Positions 2,642-8,976 of a DNA stretch of 64,000 nt are shown piece after piece. Both the position numbers and the translations under genes were made by a program. The DNA is from Escherichia coli (GTDB lineage: Bacteria > Pseudomonadota > Gammaproteobacteria > Enterobacterales > Enterobacteriaceae), in the NCBI RefSeq assembly GCF_024223415.1, contig NZ_CP100500.1, one strand, 5' to 3'. The notes under the pieces are model-generated. The model did not search any database. It was given only the letters and a program-made list of their open reading frames with translations, and was not told the origin of the DNA. Position 1 is the stretch's first letter; each line of letters starts with the position of its first letter.

Positions 2642-3523
2642 ATGGATCTGACCCAACTGGAGATGTTCAACGCGGTTGCCGAAGCTGGCAGCATTACGCA
2701 GGCTGCAGCAATAGTGCATCGCGTGCCGTCGAATCTCACTACCCGTCTACGCCAGCTGGAAACAGAACTGGGGGTAGATCTGTTTATTCGCGAGAATCAG
2801 CGTTTACGTCTATCTCCTGCCGGGCATAACTTTTTACGCTATAGCCAACAAATTCTCGCGTTAGTGGATGAAGCGCGGAGCGTTGTCGCTGGCGATGAGC
2901 CGCAAGGTTTATTTTCTCTGGGTTCGCTGGAAAGCACCGCAGCAGTTCGCATTCCGGCCACGCTGGCGGAATTCAACCGTCGTTATCCCAAAATTCAGTT
3001 TTCACTTTCCACCGGCCCTTCCGGCACTATGCTGGAAGGTGTGCTGGAGGGAAAACTTAATGCGGCGTTTATTGATGGACCCATTAACCATACTGCCATT
3101 GACGGGATACCGGTATACCGCGAGGAGCTGATGATCGTCACGCCACAAGGTCATGCGCCAGTAATCCGTGCCAGTCAGGTTAATGGCAGTAACATTTATG
3201 CCTTCCGTGCCAATTGTTCGTATCGTCGCCACTTCGAGAGCTGGTTTCATGCTGACGGTGCCGCTCCGGGAACTATCCATGAGATGGAGTCTTATCACGG
3301 AATGTTGGCCTGTGTAGTCGCAGGAGCAGGCATTGCGCTTATTCCGCGCTCTATGCTGGAAAGTATGCCGGGGCATCACCAGGTTGAAGCGTGGCCGTTA
3401 GCTGAGCAATGGCGTTGGTTAACAACCTGGCTGGTCTGGCGTCGTGGTGCGAAAACGCGTCCGCTCGAGGCATTTATTCAACTGCTGGATGTGCCTGACT
3501 CGACAAAACAGGGTTACCAATGA
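2642..3523 (+). CDS. yneJ: LysR-family transcriptional regulator YneJ, 293 aa
   Basis: N-terminal HTH (LysR type) plus substrate-binding domain; divergent from sad as is typical for LysR regulators. Confidence 0.85.
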
Positions 3524-3600
3524 GCTATTTTTGATAGTTCTTGCGGCTAATATGCTCTATATAGTGATGTTCCGATGACTTATGACTATATGGGGCAAAT

Positions 3601-4716
3601 ATGGTTACGCCAGTAAGCATCAGCAATTACATATCTCTTCCTGATGATTTTCCCGTTCGTAATATTGCACCGAAGATAAAAGAAGTTTTAAAGGATTTTA
3701 TTGATGCACTTAGTACAATAATATGTAATGAAGAGTGGCGCACGTCTTTAAACATCAACTCAGCCACAAAAAAGATATTTAATAATCTTGACAACTTATC
3801 ATATATTCAGAGGACTTCTTTTCGGGGTAACGACACGCTATACAATGAAAAGGTTCAGTTTAAACTCACTTATCCCGCCAGGAATGGAAGACACAAAGAA
3901 AATATTGAATTTCAGGTAGTAATAAATTTAAGCCCTATTTATTTAGATAATTTCCGCCATGATGGAGAAATTAATATTTTTTGCGCTCCCAACCCAAAGC
4001 CTGTTACTATGGGGCGCGTATTTCAGACCGGCGTCGAGCGTGTGCTCTTTCTGTTTCTGAATGATTTTATTGAACAATTCCCAATGATCAACCCTGGCGT
4101 TCCCATCAAAAGAGCGCATACACCACATATTGAACCCCTGCCTCCGGATCACCATACCGCTGCAGATTACTTACGCCAGTTTGATTTGCTTGTCCTGAAT
4201 TTTATCTCTCGCGGTAATTTTGTCATACTCCCCCGATTATGGAATAACTCTGAGGTTCACAGATGGTTCGTCAATAAAGATCCTAACTTGATCACCGCCA
4301 TTCTCGACATAACGGACAGCGAATTAAAAGAGGATTTATTGCAAAGCCTGATGGATTCATTAGGTTCTAACAAACATGTACTACCCGAAGTCTGCATCTG
4401 TTTTTTATCCCTTTTAGCAGAACAAGAATCTCCTCATTTTCAGGACTTGTTTTTATTTTTCGCCAATATGTTGTTACACTATCACCAATTTATGAATCCC
4501 AATGAAAGTGATTTGAATGACGTGTTGATGCCAGCATCATTAAGTGATGATAAAATTATCAAACATATGGCGCGCAAGACCCTCAAACTTTTTGTAAAAA
4601 ATGAAACACCGCCAAAAGTTACTCATGAAGACCTGGTGAAAAACAGGCCTCGCTCCCCTGTCAGACCACCTATACCCGCAACCTCCAAAACGCCAGACAT
4701 TCCTGATCGTCATTAA
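3601..4716 (+). CDS. yneK: Uncharacterised protein YneK, 371 aa
   Basis: Long ORF with AT-rich codon usage, atypical for the flanking core genes; matches the position and length of K-12 yneK. Confidence 0.7.
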   Translation: MVTPVSISNYISLPDDFPVRNIAPKIKEVLKDFIDALSTIICNEEWRTSLNINSATKKIFNNLDNLSYIQRTSFRGNDTLYNEKVQFKLTYPARNGRHKENIEFQVVINLSPIYLDNFRHDGEINIFCAPNPKPVTMGRVFQTGVERVLFLFLNDFIEQFPMINPGVPIKRAHTPHIEPLPPDHHTAADYLRQFDLLVLNFISRGNFVILPRLWNNSEVHRWFVNKDPNLITAILDITDSELKEDLLQSLMDSLGSNKHVLPEVCICFLSLLAEQESPHFQDLFLFFANMLLHYHQFMNPNESDLNDVLMPASLSDDKIIKHMARKTLKLFVKNETPPKVTHEDLVKNRPRSPVRPPIPATSKTPDIPDRH

Positions 4717-4866
4717 ACCGTGATGTTTACCGTCTCTCTGACGCGTGAAAGAATCAGCGTCAGAGAAACGGAAAACGCGATCCAGATCACAAATGCATTG
4801 TATTCACATCATTAACCGTTTTAAGATCATTTCATCACTTTTTCGCAACTCACCCGATAATCTGTT

Positions 4867-6057
4867 ATGACAACAAACACTGTTTCCCGCAAAGTGGCAT
4901 GGCTACGGGTCGTTACGCTGGCAGTCGCCGCCTTCATCTTCAACACCACCGAATTTGTCCCTGTTGGCCTGCTCTCTGACATTGCGCAAAGTTTTCACAT
5001 GCAAACCGCTCAGGTCGGCATTATGTTGACCATTTACGCATGGGTAGTAGCGCTAATGTCATTGCCTTTTATGCTAATGACCAGCCAGGTTGAACGGCGC
5101 AAATTACTGATCTGCCTGTTTGTGGTGTTTATTGCCAGCCACGTACTGTCGTTTTTATCGTGGAGCTTTACCGTTCTGGTGATCAGTCGCATTGGTGTGG
5201 CTTTTGCACATGCGATTTTCTGGTCGATTACGGCGTCCCTGGCGATCCGTATGGCTCCGGCCGGGAAGCGAGCACAGGCATTGAGTTTAATTGCCACAGG
5301 TACAGCACTGGCAATGGTATTAGGATTACCTCTCGGGCGCATTGTGGGGCAGTATTTCGGTTGGCGAATGACCTTCTTCGCGATTGGTATCGGGGCGCTT
5401 GTTACCCTTTTGTGCCTGATTAAGTTACTTCCCTTACTGCCCAGTGAGCATTCCGGTTCATTGAAAAGCCTCCCGCTATTGTTCCGCCGCCCGGCATTGA
5501 TGAGCATTTATTTGTTAACTGTGGTGGTTGTCACCGCCCATTACACGGCATACAGCTATATTGAGCCTTTTGTGCAAAACATTGCGGGATTCAGCGCCAA
5601 CTTTGCCACGGCATTACTGTTATTACTCGGTGGTGCGGGCATTATTGGCAGCGTGATTTTCGGGAAACTGGGTAATCAGTATGCGTCTGCGTTGGTGAGT
5701 ACGGCGATTGCGCTGTTGCTGGTGTGTCTGGCACTGCTGCTACCTGCGGCGAACAGTGAAATACACCTCGGGGTGCTGAGTATTTTCTGGGGGATCGCGA
5801 TGATGATCATCGGGCTTGGTATGCAGGTTAAAGTGCTGGCGCTGGCACCAGATGCCACCGACGTCGCGATGGCGCTATTCTCCGGGATATTTAATATTGG
5901 AATCGGGGCGGGTGCGTTGGTAGGTAATCAGGTGAGTCTGCACTGGTCAATGTCGATGATTGGTTATGTGGGCGCGGTGCCTGCTTTTGCCGCGTTAATA
6001 TGGTCAATCATTATATTTCGCCGCTGGCCAGTGACACTCGAAGAACAGACGCAATAG
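4867..6057 (+). CDS. ydeA: MFS sugar efflux transporter YdeA (arabinose exporter), 396 aa
   Basis: 12-TM hydrophobic profile; recognised as YdeA. Confidence 0.85.
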
Positions 6058-7796: not shown

Positions 7797-7827
7797 TTGA
7801 AAACGTGACAACGTCACTGAGGCAATT

Positions 7828-8046
7828 ATGAAACCGCTTTTATCCGCAATAGCAGCTGCGCTTATTCTCTTTTCCGCGCAGGGCGTTGCGGAACAAACCC
7901 AGCAACCGCTCGTTACTTCCTGTGGCGATGTGGTGGTTGTTCCCCCATCGCAGGAACAACCACCGTTCGATTTAAATCACATGGGTACAGGCAGTGACAA
8001 ATCGGATGCGCTGGGCGTGCCCTATTATAACCAACAAGCCATGTAG
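7828..8046 (+). CDS. marB: MarB, small periplasmic protein, 72 aa
   Basis: Signal-peptide-like N-terminus; last gene of marRAB. Confidence 0.85.
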   Translation: MKPLLSAIAAALILFSAQGVAEQTQQPLVTSCGDVVVVPPSQEQPPFDLNHMGTGSDKSDALGVPYYNQQAM

Positions 8047-8054
8047 TATATTCA

Positions 8055-8078
8055 GGCCCCGGCATATCGGGGCTTGTT
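8055..8078. terminator. Hairpin terminator between marB and eamA
   Basis: GCCCCG-gcatat-CGGGGC stem followed by TTGTT. Confidence 0.5.
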
Positions 8079-8976
8079 AACCTCTTACCTTCACCGCTTT
8101 ACGCCACTGCAAACCAAATACATTGATATACAGTCCGGCCATAATGAGCACAGCCCCTAAGAATTGCAGACCTGTTAAGCGTTCATCCAGCAGTAACGCT
8201 GCACTTGCCAGACCGACTACCGGCACCAGTAATGATAATGGTGCGACACGCCATGTTTCATAGCGTCCAAGCAGCGTACCCCAAATCCCGTAGCCAACTA
8301 TCGTCGCTACAAATGCCAGATACATCAACGCCAGAATGGTGGTCATGTCGATAGTGACCAGACTGTGAATCATTTTTCCGGAGCCATCGAGAATGAGCGA
8401 GGCGACAAAAAACGGAATTATCGGGATTAATGCGCTCCAGACGACCAGAGACATTACCGCCGGACGGGATGAATGAGACATGATCTTTTTGTTGAAGATA
8501 TTGCCACTCGCCCAACTAAATGCCGCTGCCAGAGTCAAAATAAAACCGAGCATCGCCACATGCTGACCGTTAAAGCTATCTTCGATTAACACCAGTACGC
8601 CAAAAATCGCTAACGCAATCCCCGCCAGTTGCTTACCGTGCAGCCGTTCGCCAAAAGTAAAAGCACCGAGCACGATAGTAAAAAACGCCTGAGCCTGTAA
8701 GACCAGCGAGGCCAGTCCAGCCGGCATACCGAAGTTAATGGCGCAGAAGAGAAAGGCAAACTGTGCAAAACTGATGGTTAAACCATACCCCAGCAGTAAA
8801 TTCAGCGGTACTTTTGGTCGTGCCACGAAAAAGATTGCCGGGAAGGCGACCAGCATAAAGCGCAAACCGGCCAGCATCAGCGGTGGCATGTTATGAAGCC
8901 CCACTTTGATGACCACAAAATTTAGCCCCCATACGACCACTACCAGTAGCGCCAACACCCCATCTTTTCGCGACAT
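8077..8976 (-). CDS. eamA: Cysteine/O-acetylserine exporter EamA (YdeD), DMT superfamily, 299 aa
   Basis: Start set at ATG 8976 (MSRKDGVLALLVVVVWG...) preceded by GAGGCGG; 10-TM profile. Confidence 0.85.
   Translation of the reverse strand: MSRKDGVLALLVVVVWGLNFVVIKVGLHNMPPLMLAGLRFMLVAFPAIFFVARPKVPLNLLLGYGLTISFAQFAFLFCAINFGMPAGLASLVLQAQAFFTIVLGAFTFGERLHGKQLAGIALAIFGVLVLIEDSFNGQHVAMLGFILTLAAAFSWASGNIFNKKIMSHSSRPAVMSLVVWSALIPIIPFFVASLILDGSGKMIHSLVTIDMTTILALMYLAFVATIVGYGIWGTLLGRYETWRVAPLSLLVPVVGLASAALLLDERLTGLQFLGAVLIMAGLYINVFGLQWRKAVKVRG

Follow-up and report, generated by a model that had tools for sequence, protein, structure and literature searches.

Introduction

The AT-rich gene yneK of Escherichia coli raises the question of whether a reading frame so unlike its neighbors in base composition is a genuine gene, from where it came, and what its product might do. 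The preliminary description of the locus regarded it as a gene of the core region with lower GC content and different codon usage than the surrounding genes, encoding a protein without recognizable motif, and proposed an old horizontal acquisition. Here, we examine yneK within a window of 64,000 nucleotides, which is the whole stretch of DNA analyzed, and compare its locus with the corresponding sites of other E. coli strains, of other Escherichia species and of related genera. We conclude with good confidence that yneK is an orphan gene confined to one genus, and that it lies on a foreign, AT-rich piece of DNA of ~1.27 kb, inserted once and later lost repeatedly.

Identity and Coding Status of yneK

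The feature under study is a single open reading frame.

3601–4716, plus strand: coding sequence (CDS) of yneK, an intact ATG-to-TAA frame of 371 aa

It is an already known and uncharacterized gene (b1527, UniProt P76150), whose name carries no functional information. Its product matches the NCBIfam equivalog NF033404, "putative protein YneK", with 810.8 bits (E 1.3e-244; curated cut-off 40 bits), residues 1–371 falling on profile positions 1–371, and in RefSeq an identical strain carries the same sequence under the name yneK, at a position between ptrR and ydeA. Comparison with YneK of E. coli K-12 likewise gives a full-length match at the same ptrR/ydeA position without any difference, so that the two are the same gene. 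It has been termed uncharacterized in the literature (PMC11540155; PMC12757027), where matches for "yneK" mostly concern an unrelated YneK of B. subtilis or author names, and those for "b1527" are strain names. On the Kyte-Doolittle scale, no 19-mer of the protein exceeds 1.17, the pI is 6.4, and there is neither a signal peptide nor a membrane segment; YneK is a soluble protein and probably cytoplasmic.

An AT-rich stretch of this kind could also be mere spacer with a chance reading frame, or a decaying pseudogene. Expression is indeed very low, with a base mean of 14 (PMC9068703), and yneK is without known phenotype, without domains, and often deleted or truncated in nature. Against this, all 371 codons remain open in DNA of 39% GC in E. 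coli, in the second allele class of this species and in E. albertii, despite pS values of 0.4–0.6. When the 1268-bp segment was shuffled 2000 times, the longest open reading frame averaged 62 codons and reached at most 160, and thus a frame of 371 codons is not due to chance. The dN/dS ratio is 0.15–0.16, and the excess of synonymous over non-synonymous change is strongly significant both against E. albertii (chi-square p 3e-40) and between the allele classes (p 2e-34); no 40-codon window of yneK has a pN/pS above 0.45, and positive selection is rejected. Judged by this substitution pattern, yneK is a real protein-coding gene under moderate purifying selection, and its reading as a chance frame or pseudogene is very improbable and close to refuted.

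Base Composition and Codon Usage

The GC content of yneK is 0.392 (GC1 0.47, GC2 0.32, GC3 0.39), as compared with 0.489 for the 64-kb window, and it is the lowest among the 37 open reading frames of at least 150 aa (mean 0.503, sd 0.041), lying ~2.7 sd below their mean. The three neighboring genes on each side have values of 0.51–0.53, so that yneK falls ~10 points lower, and does so at all three codon positions. Along the window, the dip in GC is sharp and coincides with the yneK frame and its short flanks. Equally or more AT-rich composition is found in 7.3% of the 1116-bp windows across the 64 kb, all of them in the prophage part. The lower GC of the preliminary description is thereby borne out (39.2% vs. 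48.9%), and the composition of yneK falls outside the local norm. Its claim of a different codon usage holds in part: the Kullback-Leibler (KL) divergence of synonymous usage is 0.191, the highest among the 12 frames of 280–480 codons (others 0.086–0.160), but the deviation is modest over all 37 frames, where yneK ranks only 15th. By rare-codon content it ranks 7th of 37. The difference in codon usage mostly reflects the difference in GC content.

Searches for Domains, Homologues and Structure

Apart from its own family, NF033404, YneK has no significant match in Pfam, PHROGs or PADLOC, and PADLOC-DB 2.0, which holds described defense systems only, returned no family at E up to 1. Three PHROGs (best E 0.066–0.29) and Pfam DUF1140 (E 0.15; 13 bits, below the cut-off of 25) gave sub-threshold matches, every one of them on residues 39–93 and probably compositional. 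No homologue outside Escherichia emerged from 5.8 billion clusters in a word-indexed search. Profile searching, done exhaustively over 1.84 billion representatives, gave matches only in E. coli, Shigella and E. albertii, barring an 820-aa repeat protein (E 5e-4), the sole match outside, which was dismissed as chance. Low-scoring matches, inspected singly, were frameshifted yneK fragments from noisy assemblies. The best match among PDB sequences had an E of 0.62. Six-frame searches of phages and plasmids, together with IMG/VR, revealed neither a donor nor a relative; apparent "plasmid" matches were mislabeled chromosomes. Among a total of ~15 billion predicted proteins, no relative of YneK was found. 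The absence of a recognizable motif is therefore as initially described, and no homology to a housekeeping family emerged from any of these searches. The structure-based homology check that had been suggested was also carried out, but it was uninformative: the AlphaFold2 models reached pLDDT values of only 47.9 for the full length and 47.4 for residues 1–180, too poor for interpretation, and the fold search was unspecific. Present in a narrow clade and constrained at the protein level, yneK is a taxonomically restricted (orphan) gene.

The Inserted Segment and Its Target Site

Alignment to empty sites, in which ptrR (yneJ) and ydeA (sotB) adjoin without yneK, delimits a segment that is larger than the gene.

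2642–3523, plus strand: ptrR (yneJ), gene of a LysR-type regulator that immediately precedes yneK in the same orientation; the insertion apparently rebuilt the 3' end of ptrR
3501–3509, plus strand: left direct-repeat copy CGACAAAAC, from empty-site alignment and junction comparison
3510–4768 (+/- ~10 nt), unstranded: Escherichia-specific insert, ~1.27 kb, GC 0.396, from empty-site alignment
4769–4777, plus strand: right direct-repeat copy CGGAAAACG, at the point where empty-site homology restarts

Within the insert, the four final codons and the stop of ptrR/yneJ are followed by a 77-nt leader, by yneK and by a 3' hairpin. Empty sites in Salmonella, Citrobacter and other Escherichia cease to align near 3489–3510 and align again from near 4765–4785. 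The insert is absent from the ptrR(yneJ)-ydeA(sotB) junction of Salmonella enterica subsp. diarizonae and arizonae, of several Citrobacter and of Trabulsiella, and the same junction is likewise empty in the representatives of four non-coli Escherichia species. In E. albertii, yneK occupies the same site as in E. coli.

These empty sites bear on two explanations that dispense with a foreign source. According to the first, yneK would be an ancestral enterobacterial gene, inherited vertically, diverging fast and lost outside E. coli and E. albertii. The conserved chromosomal neighborhood without mobility genes is in keeping with this, as is a dS of yneK that resembles that of its neighbors. However, yneK is missing from every one of the more than 70 loci outside Escherichia that have a yneJ orthologue, and where yneJ and sotB adjoin, the gap between them is only 88–166 bp and can be aligned from genus to genus as a target present once; the GC content 10 points below that of the neighbors and the lack of any remote homologue also speak against vertical descent, which we regard as highly unlikely. 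The second explanation, de novo birth from non-coding spacer DNA between ptrR and ydeA, could draw on the orphan status of YneK among ~15 billion proteins and on its low AlphaFold confidence. The spacer of the sister taxa, however, measures only ~90–170 bp and the whole 1.27 kb is missing there; since these spacers are so short, there was no local raw material for such a birth. With the foreign composition and the strongly conserved blocks of a long protein also weighing against it, a de novo origin is exceedingly improbable.

The left repeat copy CGACAAAAC matches CGGCAAAAT, which empty sites contain once, as the coding sequence of the final YneJ codons. The insert of E. albertii has the exact 10-mer CGACAAAACG on either side, with a score reached in 22 of 2000 shuffles, while the E. 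coli copies are decayed and, by the shuffle test, not significant alone. A longer target duplication or att-like site (~45 nt) was also considered, and shuffle tests gave it no support. The only open reading frame of the insert has no integrase or transposase domain, no tRNA lies within 12 kb, no inverted repeat pairs the two ends, and the median number of yneK copies per genome is 1. As we reconstruct it, the segment would have entered ptrR/yneJ once, at the 3' end of this gene and shortly before ydeA/sotB, in an ancestor of E. coli and E. albertii, duplicating or using a target of ~10 bp (CGACAAAACG) and rebuilding the last ptrR codons; any mobility gene that it may have brought would not have survived to the present.

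Age and Number of Acquisitions

Between E. coli and E. albertii, dS is 1.21 for yneK, 1.01 for yneJ and 1.10 for sotB. Since the dS of yneK equals that of its flanks, the insertion is about as old as the split of the two species, an equality of age that is approximate, as dS values near 1 are close to saturation. The corresponding dN/dS ratios are 0.16, 0.044 and 0.029, and the YneK protein evolves 4–6 times faster than its neighbors. Right up to the final 300-bp window on either side of the junction, the flanks of E. coli lie nearer to those of other Escherichia species than to those of E. albertii; the distance between the two carriers shows no dip, and thus the locus follows the species tree and a recent exchange between E. 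coli and E. albertii is rejected. The old horizontal acquisition originally proposed gains support from the empty outgroup sites, from a dS equal to that of the flanks and from the absence of homologues outside Escherichia.

A single gain requires at least two or three later losses among the other Escherichia species. The empty sites of E. whittamii, Escherichia sp. E1V33 and SCPM-O-B-8794 share a Gln codon with the outgroups, Salmonella included, in a position that is Pro in the two carriers, and they also share 13 extra nt with the outgroups, the tail common to E. coli and E. albertii being shorter; this near-ancestral look means that simple deletion fits these sites poorly. It could instead be that the other Escherichia never had yneK, and that E. 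coli and E. albertii gained it separately or through a later transfer between them, for which the near-saturated dS, with its loose timing, also leaves room. Yet the site and the junction repeat are identical in both carriers, the flanks fit the species tree to the last 300-bp windows, the divergence of yneK between the carriers is not below that of the flanks, and independent losses by deletion are demonstrably frequent here. Two gains or a later transfer thus appear unlikely, and one ancestral insertion followed by losses is the reading that we prefer.

Loss Alleles and Allele Classes in Escherichia coli

The most frequent form of loss in E. coli is an internal deletion of ~1 kb.

3686–4699, unstranded: stretch missing in the common deletion allele (L085 retains 3422–3685 and 4700–4926)

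This one deletion is common to 1116 of 5426 complete E. coli genomes (~21%), including that of ABU 83972; all 1116 have the contiguous deletion junction, with at least 99% identity in 1056 records. In other lineages, yneK is interrupted by IS1 or IS903, the type strain of E. albertii carries a nonsense codon at position 86, and Shigella sonnei has truncated forms. To judge from these natural alleles, yneK is dispensable, having been deleted, interrupted or truncated many times. The designation as a gene of the core region must accordingly be given up in its strict sense, as about a fifth of the complete genomes hold the deletion allele.

The yneK alleles of E. coli fall into two classes that have diverged deeply, with a dS of 0.59 and a dN/dS of 0.147. 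Divergence between them peaks centered on yneK, and the flanks diverge by only 1–3%. Pangenome associations that flag yneK, and nearby marB, therefore probably reflect lineage-linked allele splitting at a hypervariable spot rather than a causal gene.

Leader, 3' Hairpin and Expression

Two non-coding elements accompany yneK within the insert or at its edge.

3524–3600, plus strand: leader between ptrR and yneK, 84% identical to that of E. albertii (74% for the CDS)
4725–4776, plus strand: stem-loop (inverted repeat I1), beginning 9 nt past the yneK stop, without a U-tract

The leader contains a TATAGT hexamer (3560–3565) and a GGGG Shine-Dalgarno-like run (3592–3595), and is predicted to form a hairpin in which ~3553–3565 pairs with 3584–3595 and covers the GGGG (-26.7 kcal/mol; z -2.5 in E. 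coli). Similar pairing is predicted for E. albertii (z -1.9) and for the second allele class (z -2.0). A consensus scan of the leader found no sigma-54 or sigma-70 promoter and no terminator between ptrR and yneK; published gSELEX peaks of several holoenzymes at this AT-rich spot were not accepted as proof of a specific promoter. The 3' stem-loop has 20-nt arms that are 90% complementary (-30.5 kcal/mol, z -5.9; none of 200 shuffles as stable). Its stem core TCTCTGACG/CGTCAGAGA is retained in E. albertii, and its right arm extends into ancestral target sequence. The scan calls no intrinsic terminator here and Rfam gives no match; the element is probably a 3'-end or stabilizer hairpin.

The PtrR box TTCACGAATCGAGAA occurs without mismatch at 2623–2637, where it is the ptrR operator; this copy at the ptrR promoter is the sole one, and none lies near yneK. 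In a ptrR deletion mutant, yneK rises 6.9-fold (log2 2.78, p 0.032) from its base mean of 14 (PMC9068703). The deletion construct itself may have produced this rise as an artefact. On the model that we favor, yneK would be weakly expressed, and part of its transcription would start at the ptrR promoter, which PtrR autorepresses, and read through into yneK, because no terminator parts ptrR from yneK, and a weak promoter of its own inside the conserved leader may add to this transcription. The leader hairpin over the ribosome-binding site probably dampens translation, and H-NS would be likely to bind yneK, as it does other DNA of such composition.

Possible Functions of YneK

The protein is predicted to consist of an N-terminal alpha/beta half and a C-terminal helical half, with a strictly conserved His/Pro-rich linker, PIKR[AS]HTPHIEPL, and a conserved proline-rich tail, RPRSPV. 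Our tentative suggestion from the two halves, the linker and the tail is that YneK may most likely bind other proteins, and we would tentatively expect an accessory, niche-dependent role rather than a housekeeping one. Deep allelic dimorphism combined with recurrent loss is a pattern typical of conditionally useful "conflict" genes acting in phage or host interaction, an analogy that we draw with low confidence. A conflict or defense-type function is accordingly possible without being probable; a host-interaction or secreted function is a doubtful candidate, and a co-option into the PtrR/nitrogen-stress response is equally doubtful. The remaining share falls to something that the sequence does not yet let one imagine.

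A more specific proposal makes YneK a secreted host-interaction protein, for example a type III substrate (LEE or ETT2) of the Escherichia ancestor. Its N-terminus is rich in Ser, Ile, Pro and Asn, with the first 23 residues modeled at low confidence and probably disordered, its conserved proline-rich tail contains PRSPVR, and the AT-rich orphan is found in E. albertii and most E. coli and deleted in a lineage that includes ABU 83972. Against secretion, no search gave any similarity to a type III effector family or a linked chaperone, the neighbors being ptrR and ydeA, and yneK is intact and constrained also in strains that are not known to have a working secretion system. A pangenome association of yneK with adherence to bovine cells, which would favor the proposal, was lost after correction (PMC11540155), and lineage-linked allele divergence explains it. 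We consider a secreted host-interaction protein of this kind decidedly unlikely.

The boldest conjecture, for which the chances are slim, is that YneK founds a new family with a new fold in biological conflict, either as a single-gene phage-defense or abortive-infection factor or as an ancestral Escherichia secretion substrate. If this were true, the two allele classes would be an old balanced polymorphism and not a recombination accident, and the recurrent deletions would reflect the cost of the gene when its opponent is absent.

Comparison with Known Gene Classes

In itself, the locus is of little weight, as it concerns a named, uncharacterized gene. It does provide a clean case for studying the origin and function of orphan genes, with a datable and probably single insertion, mapped boundaries, purifying selection and two deep alleles, and cheap comparative and experimental tests are at hand owing to the natural knock-outs in a fifth of sequenced E. 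coli, the natural isogenic contrasts and the Keio mutant.

The segment would resemble insertion sequences and miniature transposons (IS/MITE) in its putative target direct repeat of ~10 bp on both sides, but differs from them in that it lacks a transposase domain, terminal inverted repeats and multiple copies, and was never found on plasmids or phages. H-NS silences xenogeneic DNA well below the genome GC in E. coli and Salmonella. With its sharp low-GC bounds, its absence in sisters, its putative short flanking repeat and its very weak expression, the yneK segment is like the small islets silenced in this way and, by its AT-richness and low expression, would be a candidate H-NS target. As in horizontally acquired islets, the sister sites are empty and the GC deviates (0.392–0.396 vs. 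0.51–0.53); unlike genomic islets in general, the segment comes without an integrase, a tRNA target or a mobility gene.

A close parallel is a class of AT-rich, fast-evolving E. coli ORFans and taxonomically restricted genes, reportedly described by Daubin and Ochman in 2004. Members of that class are typically shorter than 371 aa. Like them, yneK is confined to one genus, low in GC, faster evolving than its neighbors, poorly expressed, without homologues and patchily lost; it differs from them in its long-term purifying selection and in being a lone insert in a conserved neighborhood rather than part of a prophage or island. AT-rich orphans are a familiar class in E. coli, and yneK is an ordinary example of such a foreign orphan gene.

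The yneK Gene, Its Composition and Constraint

The window is E. coli chromosome and begins with the gene order glsB, sad, ptrR (yneJ), yneK, ydeA (sotB), marC, marRAB and eamA. The feature under study is yneK, a gene already known, and the boundaries first reported for it are exact:

3601–4716, + strand: yneK, ATG at 3601, stop codon ending at 4716, 371 aa

Along its whole length, YneK fits the NCBIfam equivalog "putative protein YneK" (810.8 bits), and searches of Pfam, PHROGs and PADLOC returned no match, so that the preliminary description of 371 aa without a recognised motif holds, the only hit being to its own family. The low GC content noticed by eye is confirmed as well: the open reading frame (ORF) has a GC of 0.392 (GC1 0.47, GC2 0.32, GC3 0.39), against 0.489 for the window and 0.51–0.53 for the neighbours, and is the minimum among 37 ORFs of at least 150 aa (mean 0.503, sd 0.041). 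The claim of unusual codon usage stands in part, since the Kullback–Leibler divergence is the highest among ORFs of similar length but ranks only 15th of 37 overall, with rare-codon content in 7th place; the usage is moderately atypical. More AT-rich stretches lie only in a lambdoid prophage further along the window (~21000–64000), at the position of the K-12 Qin prophage. The prophage encodes a tail fibre, tip attachment protein J, a tape measure, a ClpP-capsid fusion and a large terminase, and its AT-rich lysis/regulatory segment (44.3–51.2 kb) reaches a GC minimum of 0.327 near 45283. Its content is unlike that of O78 strain 3, which matches the window at 100% identity over yneK.

Three grounds establish yneK as a genuine gene. 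In 2000 shuffles of the 1268-bp segment, the longest ORF averaged 62 codons and never exceeded 160, compared with 371 aa in yneK. Comparison with the E. albertii orthologue (68% amino-acid identity; pS 0.60, pN 0.17) gives a dS of 1.21, a dN of 0.19 and a dN/dS of 0.16, a synonymous excess with a chi-square p of 3e-40; comparison with the second allele class of E. coli gives a dN/dS of 0.147 (p 2e-34). No 40-codon window along the gene approaches a pN/pS of 1. The most constrained block covers residues ~146–211 and includes the invariant stretches ERVLFLFLNDFIEQFP, HTPHIEPL and NFISRGNFVI, while the protein as a whole evolves 4–6 times faster than the flanking genes (dN/dS 0.03–0.044).

Insertion Site and Boundaries

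A scan for YneJ orthologues in one genome per species gave 80 loci, which were then searched by tblastn with YneK and the proteins of the flanking genes. Among these and four further E. albertii assemblies (L001–L004), yneK occurs only in E. coli (contig L005) and E. albertii (L010 and L001–L004), at an identical position between yneJ and sotB. Two records in the set are probably contaminants or mislabelled public assemblies: L005, labelled "MAG: Caldithrix sp.", has 98–100% protein identity to E. coli over sad–marC, and "Chryseobacterium sp. 18061" (L037) carries an enterobacterial yneJ locus near-identical to the one in Citrobacter sp. 18056, a record of the same project. Adjacent yneJ and sotB are only 88–166 bp apart, both in outgroups (Salmonella enterica subsp. 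diarizonae and arizonae, several Citrobacter, Trabulsiella) and in E. whittamii, Escherichia sp. E1V33, Escherichia sp. MOD1-EC7003 and the divergent "E. coli" SCPM-O-B-8794. At these empty sites, homology to the window ends near 3489–3510 and restarts near 4765–4785, which delimits an Escherichia-specific segment:

~1.27 kb between these breaks, GC 0.396: last four ptrR codons and stop, 77-nt leader, yneK, and ~50 nt with a hairpin

The sequence GAAACGGCAAAATGA at the end of yneJ is single-copy at empty sites and is found on either side of the insert in carriers. The E. albertii insert is flanked by the exact 10-mer CGACAAAACG, a score reached in 22 of 2000 shuffles; the E. coli copies are decayed (CGACAAAAC and CGG-AAAACG) and alone are not significant. 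Terminal inverted repeats, a mobility gene and a nearby tRNA were sought, and none was found. In Escherichia sp. MOD1-EC7003 (L006, 6862–7027), closely related to E. coli, the E. coli-type ptrR tail (LLDVPD, then stop) is retained without yneK, whose place is taken by 65 nt of AT-rich sequence, unrelated to it and containing an inverted repeat; the site resembles the scar of a separate deletion or replacement.

Relatives and Age of the Insertion

In 5.8 billion protein clusters, a word-indexed search matched YneK only to sequences of E. coli, Shigella and E. albertii. A profile built from five diverse YneK sequences and run exhaustively against 1.84 billion cluster representatives gave 48 matches; the weak ones, read individually, were frameshifted yneK fragments from noisy assemblies and one unrelated repeat protein (E 5e-4). 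PDB sequences, 50,697 phage records, 72,556 plasmid records and IMG/VR held no relative, and apparent "plasmid" matches were rejected as mislabelled chromosomes. A published BLAST survey of GTDB genomes likewise reports no relatives elsewhere (PMC12757027).

Between E. coli and E. albertii, the dS of yneK (1.21) matches that of the flanks (yneJ 1.01, sotB 1.10). In 300-bp windows on both sides, up to the last before the junction, all but one place E. coli nearer to other Escherichia than to E. albertii, and the locus thus follows the species tree without sign of recent exchange between the carriers. The old horizontal acquisition first proposed is therefore supported by empty sites in sister taxa, a dS like that of the flanks and no homologue outside Escherichia. 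The simplest history would be a single insertion preceding the E. coli/E. albertii split, followed by loss in the intervening lineages. One observation fits this history poorly: at their empty sites, three Escherichia species have a Gln codon and 13 extra nt that Salmonella and Citrobacter also possess, in place of the Pro and shorter tail common to E. coli and E. albertii. An empty allele re-imported by recombination is a possible source of this sharing; a later or double gain of yneK could also produce it, which we consider improbable.

Losses and Allele Classes

Some match to the region is present in 5417 of 5426 complete E. coli genomes, and 4232 retain at least 80% of it. An internal deletion of ~1014 bp (window 3686–4699) is common to 1116 of them, and 1056 records, ABU 83972 among them, agree at its junction with at least 99% identity, which indicates one inherited event. 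Other E. coli copies are broken by IS1 or IS903, forms in Shigella sonnei are truncated, and the E. albertii type strain NBRC 107761 has a nonsense mutation at codon 86 (L010 7216–7218), the L001–L004 assemblies being intact. In a 2029-bp metagenome scaffold (L088, 275–2029), the first 36 yneK codons are joined to unrelated DNA of 33.5% GC encoding a chimeric ORF of 290 aa and a HATPase_c_4 protein of 157 aa; either some strain has had its yneK locus replaced or interrupted in this way, or the assembly is chimeric.

Intact E. coli yneK falls into two allele classes, of which the window carries the commoner; the second, at ≥99% identity, is found in 19 complete genomes and a gut metagenome. The classes are 85% identical in DNA and 84% in protein (dS 0.59). 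Over 8 kb, divergence between the haplotypes peaks at 10–22% over yneK, is 5–11% in the adjoining halves of ptrR and ydeA, and reaches the 1–3% background ~1.5 kb to either side; a side comparison set window 3000–6000 against the loci L090 and L087. The peak is the footprint of either an introgressed old haplotype or a long-maintained polymorphism. The right junction of the common deletion allele resembles the rarer haplotype and the left junction the commoner one. A second hypervariable spot lies ~3 kb from yneK at 7800–8316 (3' ends of marB and eamA), 8–14% divergent from two other E. coli strains where its surroundings differ by 0–3%, and may be why marB and yneK are flagged jointly in pangenome association studies. 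In one such study, both genes were "associated" with adherence until correction (PMC11540155), probably because allele splitting at hypervariable spots tracks lineage.

Expression and RNA Features

A 77-nt spacer separates yneK from ptrR, which precedes it on the same strand, and no intrinsic terminator is called between the two. The PtrR operator occurs once, at 2623–2637 before ptrR, and is absent near yneK. Published RNA-seq shows yneK barely expressed (base mean 14 vs 222 for sad) and 6.9-fold up in a ptrR deletion (PMC9068703). Transcription may proceed by read-through from the autorepressed ptrR promoter, which would fit this rise; a construct artefact is also possible. The leader is 84% identical to that of E. 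albertii, against 74% for the coding sequence, and its predicted fold pairs GCUCUAUAUAGU with ACUAUAUGGGGC, hiding the sole Shine-Dalgarno-like run (z −2.5), similarly in E. albertii and the second allele class. Beyond the stop codon lies a very stable hairpin (−30.5 kcal/mol, z −5.9) that has no U-tract and whose stem core is retained in E. albertii. A 13-codon upstream ORF (3575–3616, ATG 3575) runs across the E. coli start in another reading frame; this ATG shares the frame of yneK in E. albertii, where gene callers lengthen YneK by 9 residues, to 380 aa. The composition predicts H-NS silencing. Several RNA polymerase holoenzymes and NtrC are reported to bind this AT-rich spot in vitro (PMC8743547, PMC5493296), which we take as non-specific.

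The YneK Protein and Its Possible Role

YneK is soluble (maximum 19-residue hydropathy 1.17, pI 6.4), and inspection found no signal peptide. AlphaFold2 on a shallow alignment gave a mean pLDDT of 48 for the full length and 47 for the N-terminal half alone. In this low-confidence model, a disordered N-terminus precedes three helices, a four-stranded sheet, a long helix and a ~30-residue linker, itself of low confidence and yet the best-conserved part; a helical C-terminal half and a disordered proline-rich tail are modelled beyond it. Published screens report no yneK phenotype: a hit in a CRISPR-transposase host-factor screen failed validation, and butanol tolerance from yneK-ydeA-marC deletions was credited to marC. 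YneK proved negative in all tests for membership of a known defence system, phage family or effector group. Deep dimorphism, repeated loss and fast protein evolution under constraint tentatively favour a role in conflict, with phage or host, over metabolism, and an accessory, conditionally useful protein acting by partner binding would be our guess, held with little confidence.

Comparison with Known Systems

Judged against the searchable literature, this analysis adds the mapped insertion with its target repeat, its dating against the flanks, an inventory of losses, and two allele classes with a divergence peak. Nothing here should surprise a specialist, and yneK serves well as a test case in orphan-gene biology. 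Among AT-rich orphans, it is typical of its kind, on a small foreign islet. The usual genomic islet has a mobility gene or a tRNA site, whereas that of yneK has neither, and the segment also lacks the transposase, inverted ends and extra copies of an insertion sequence.
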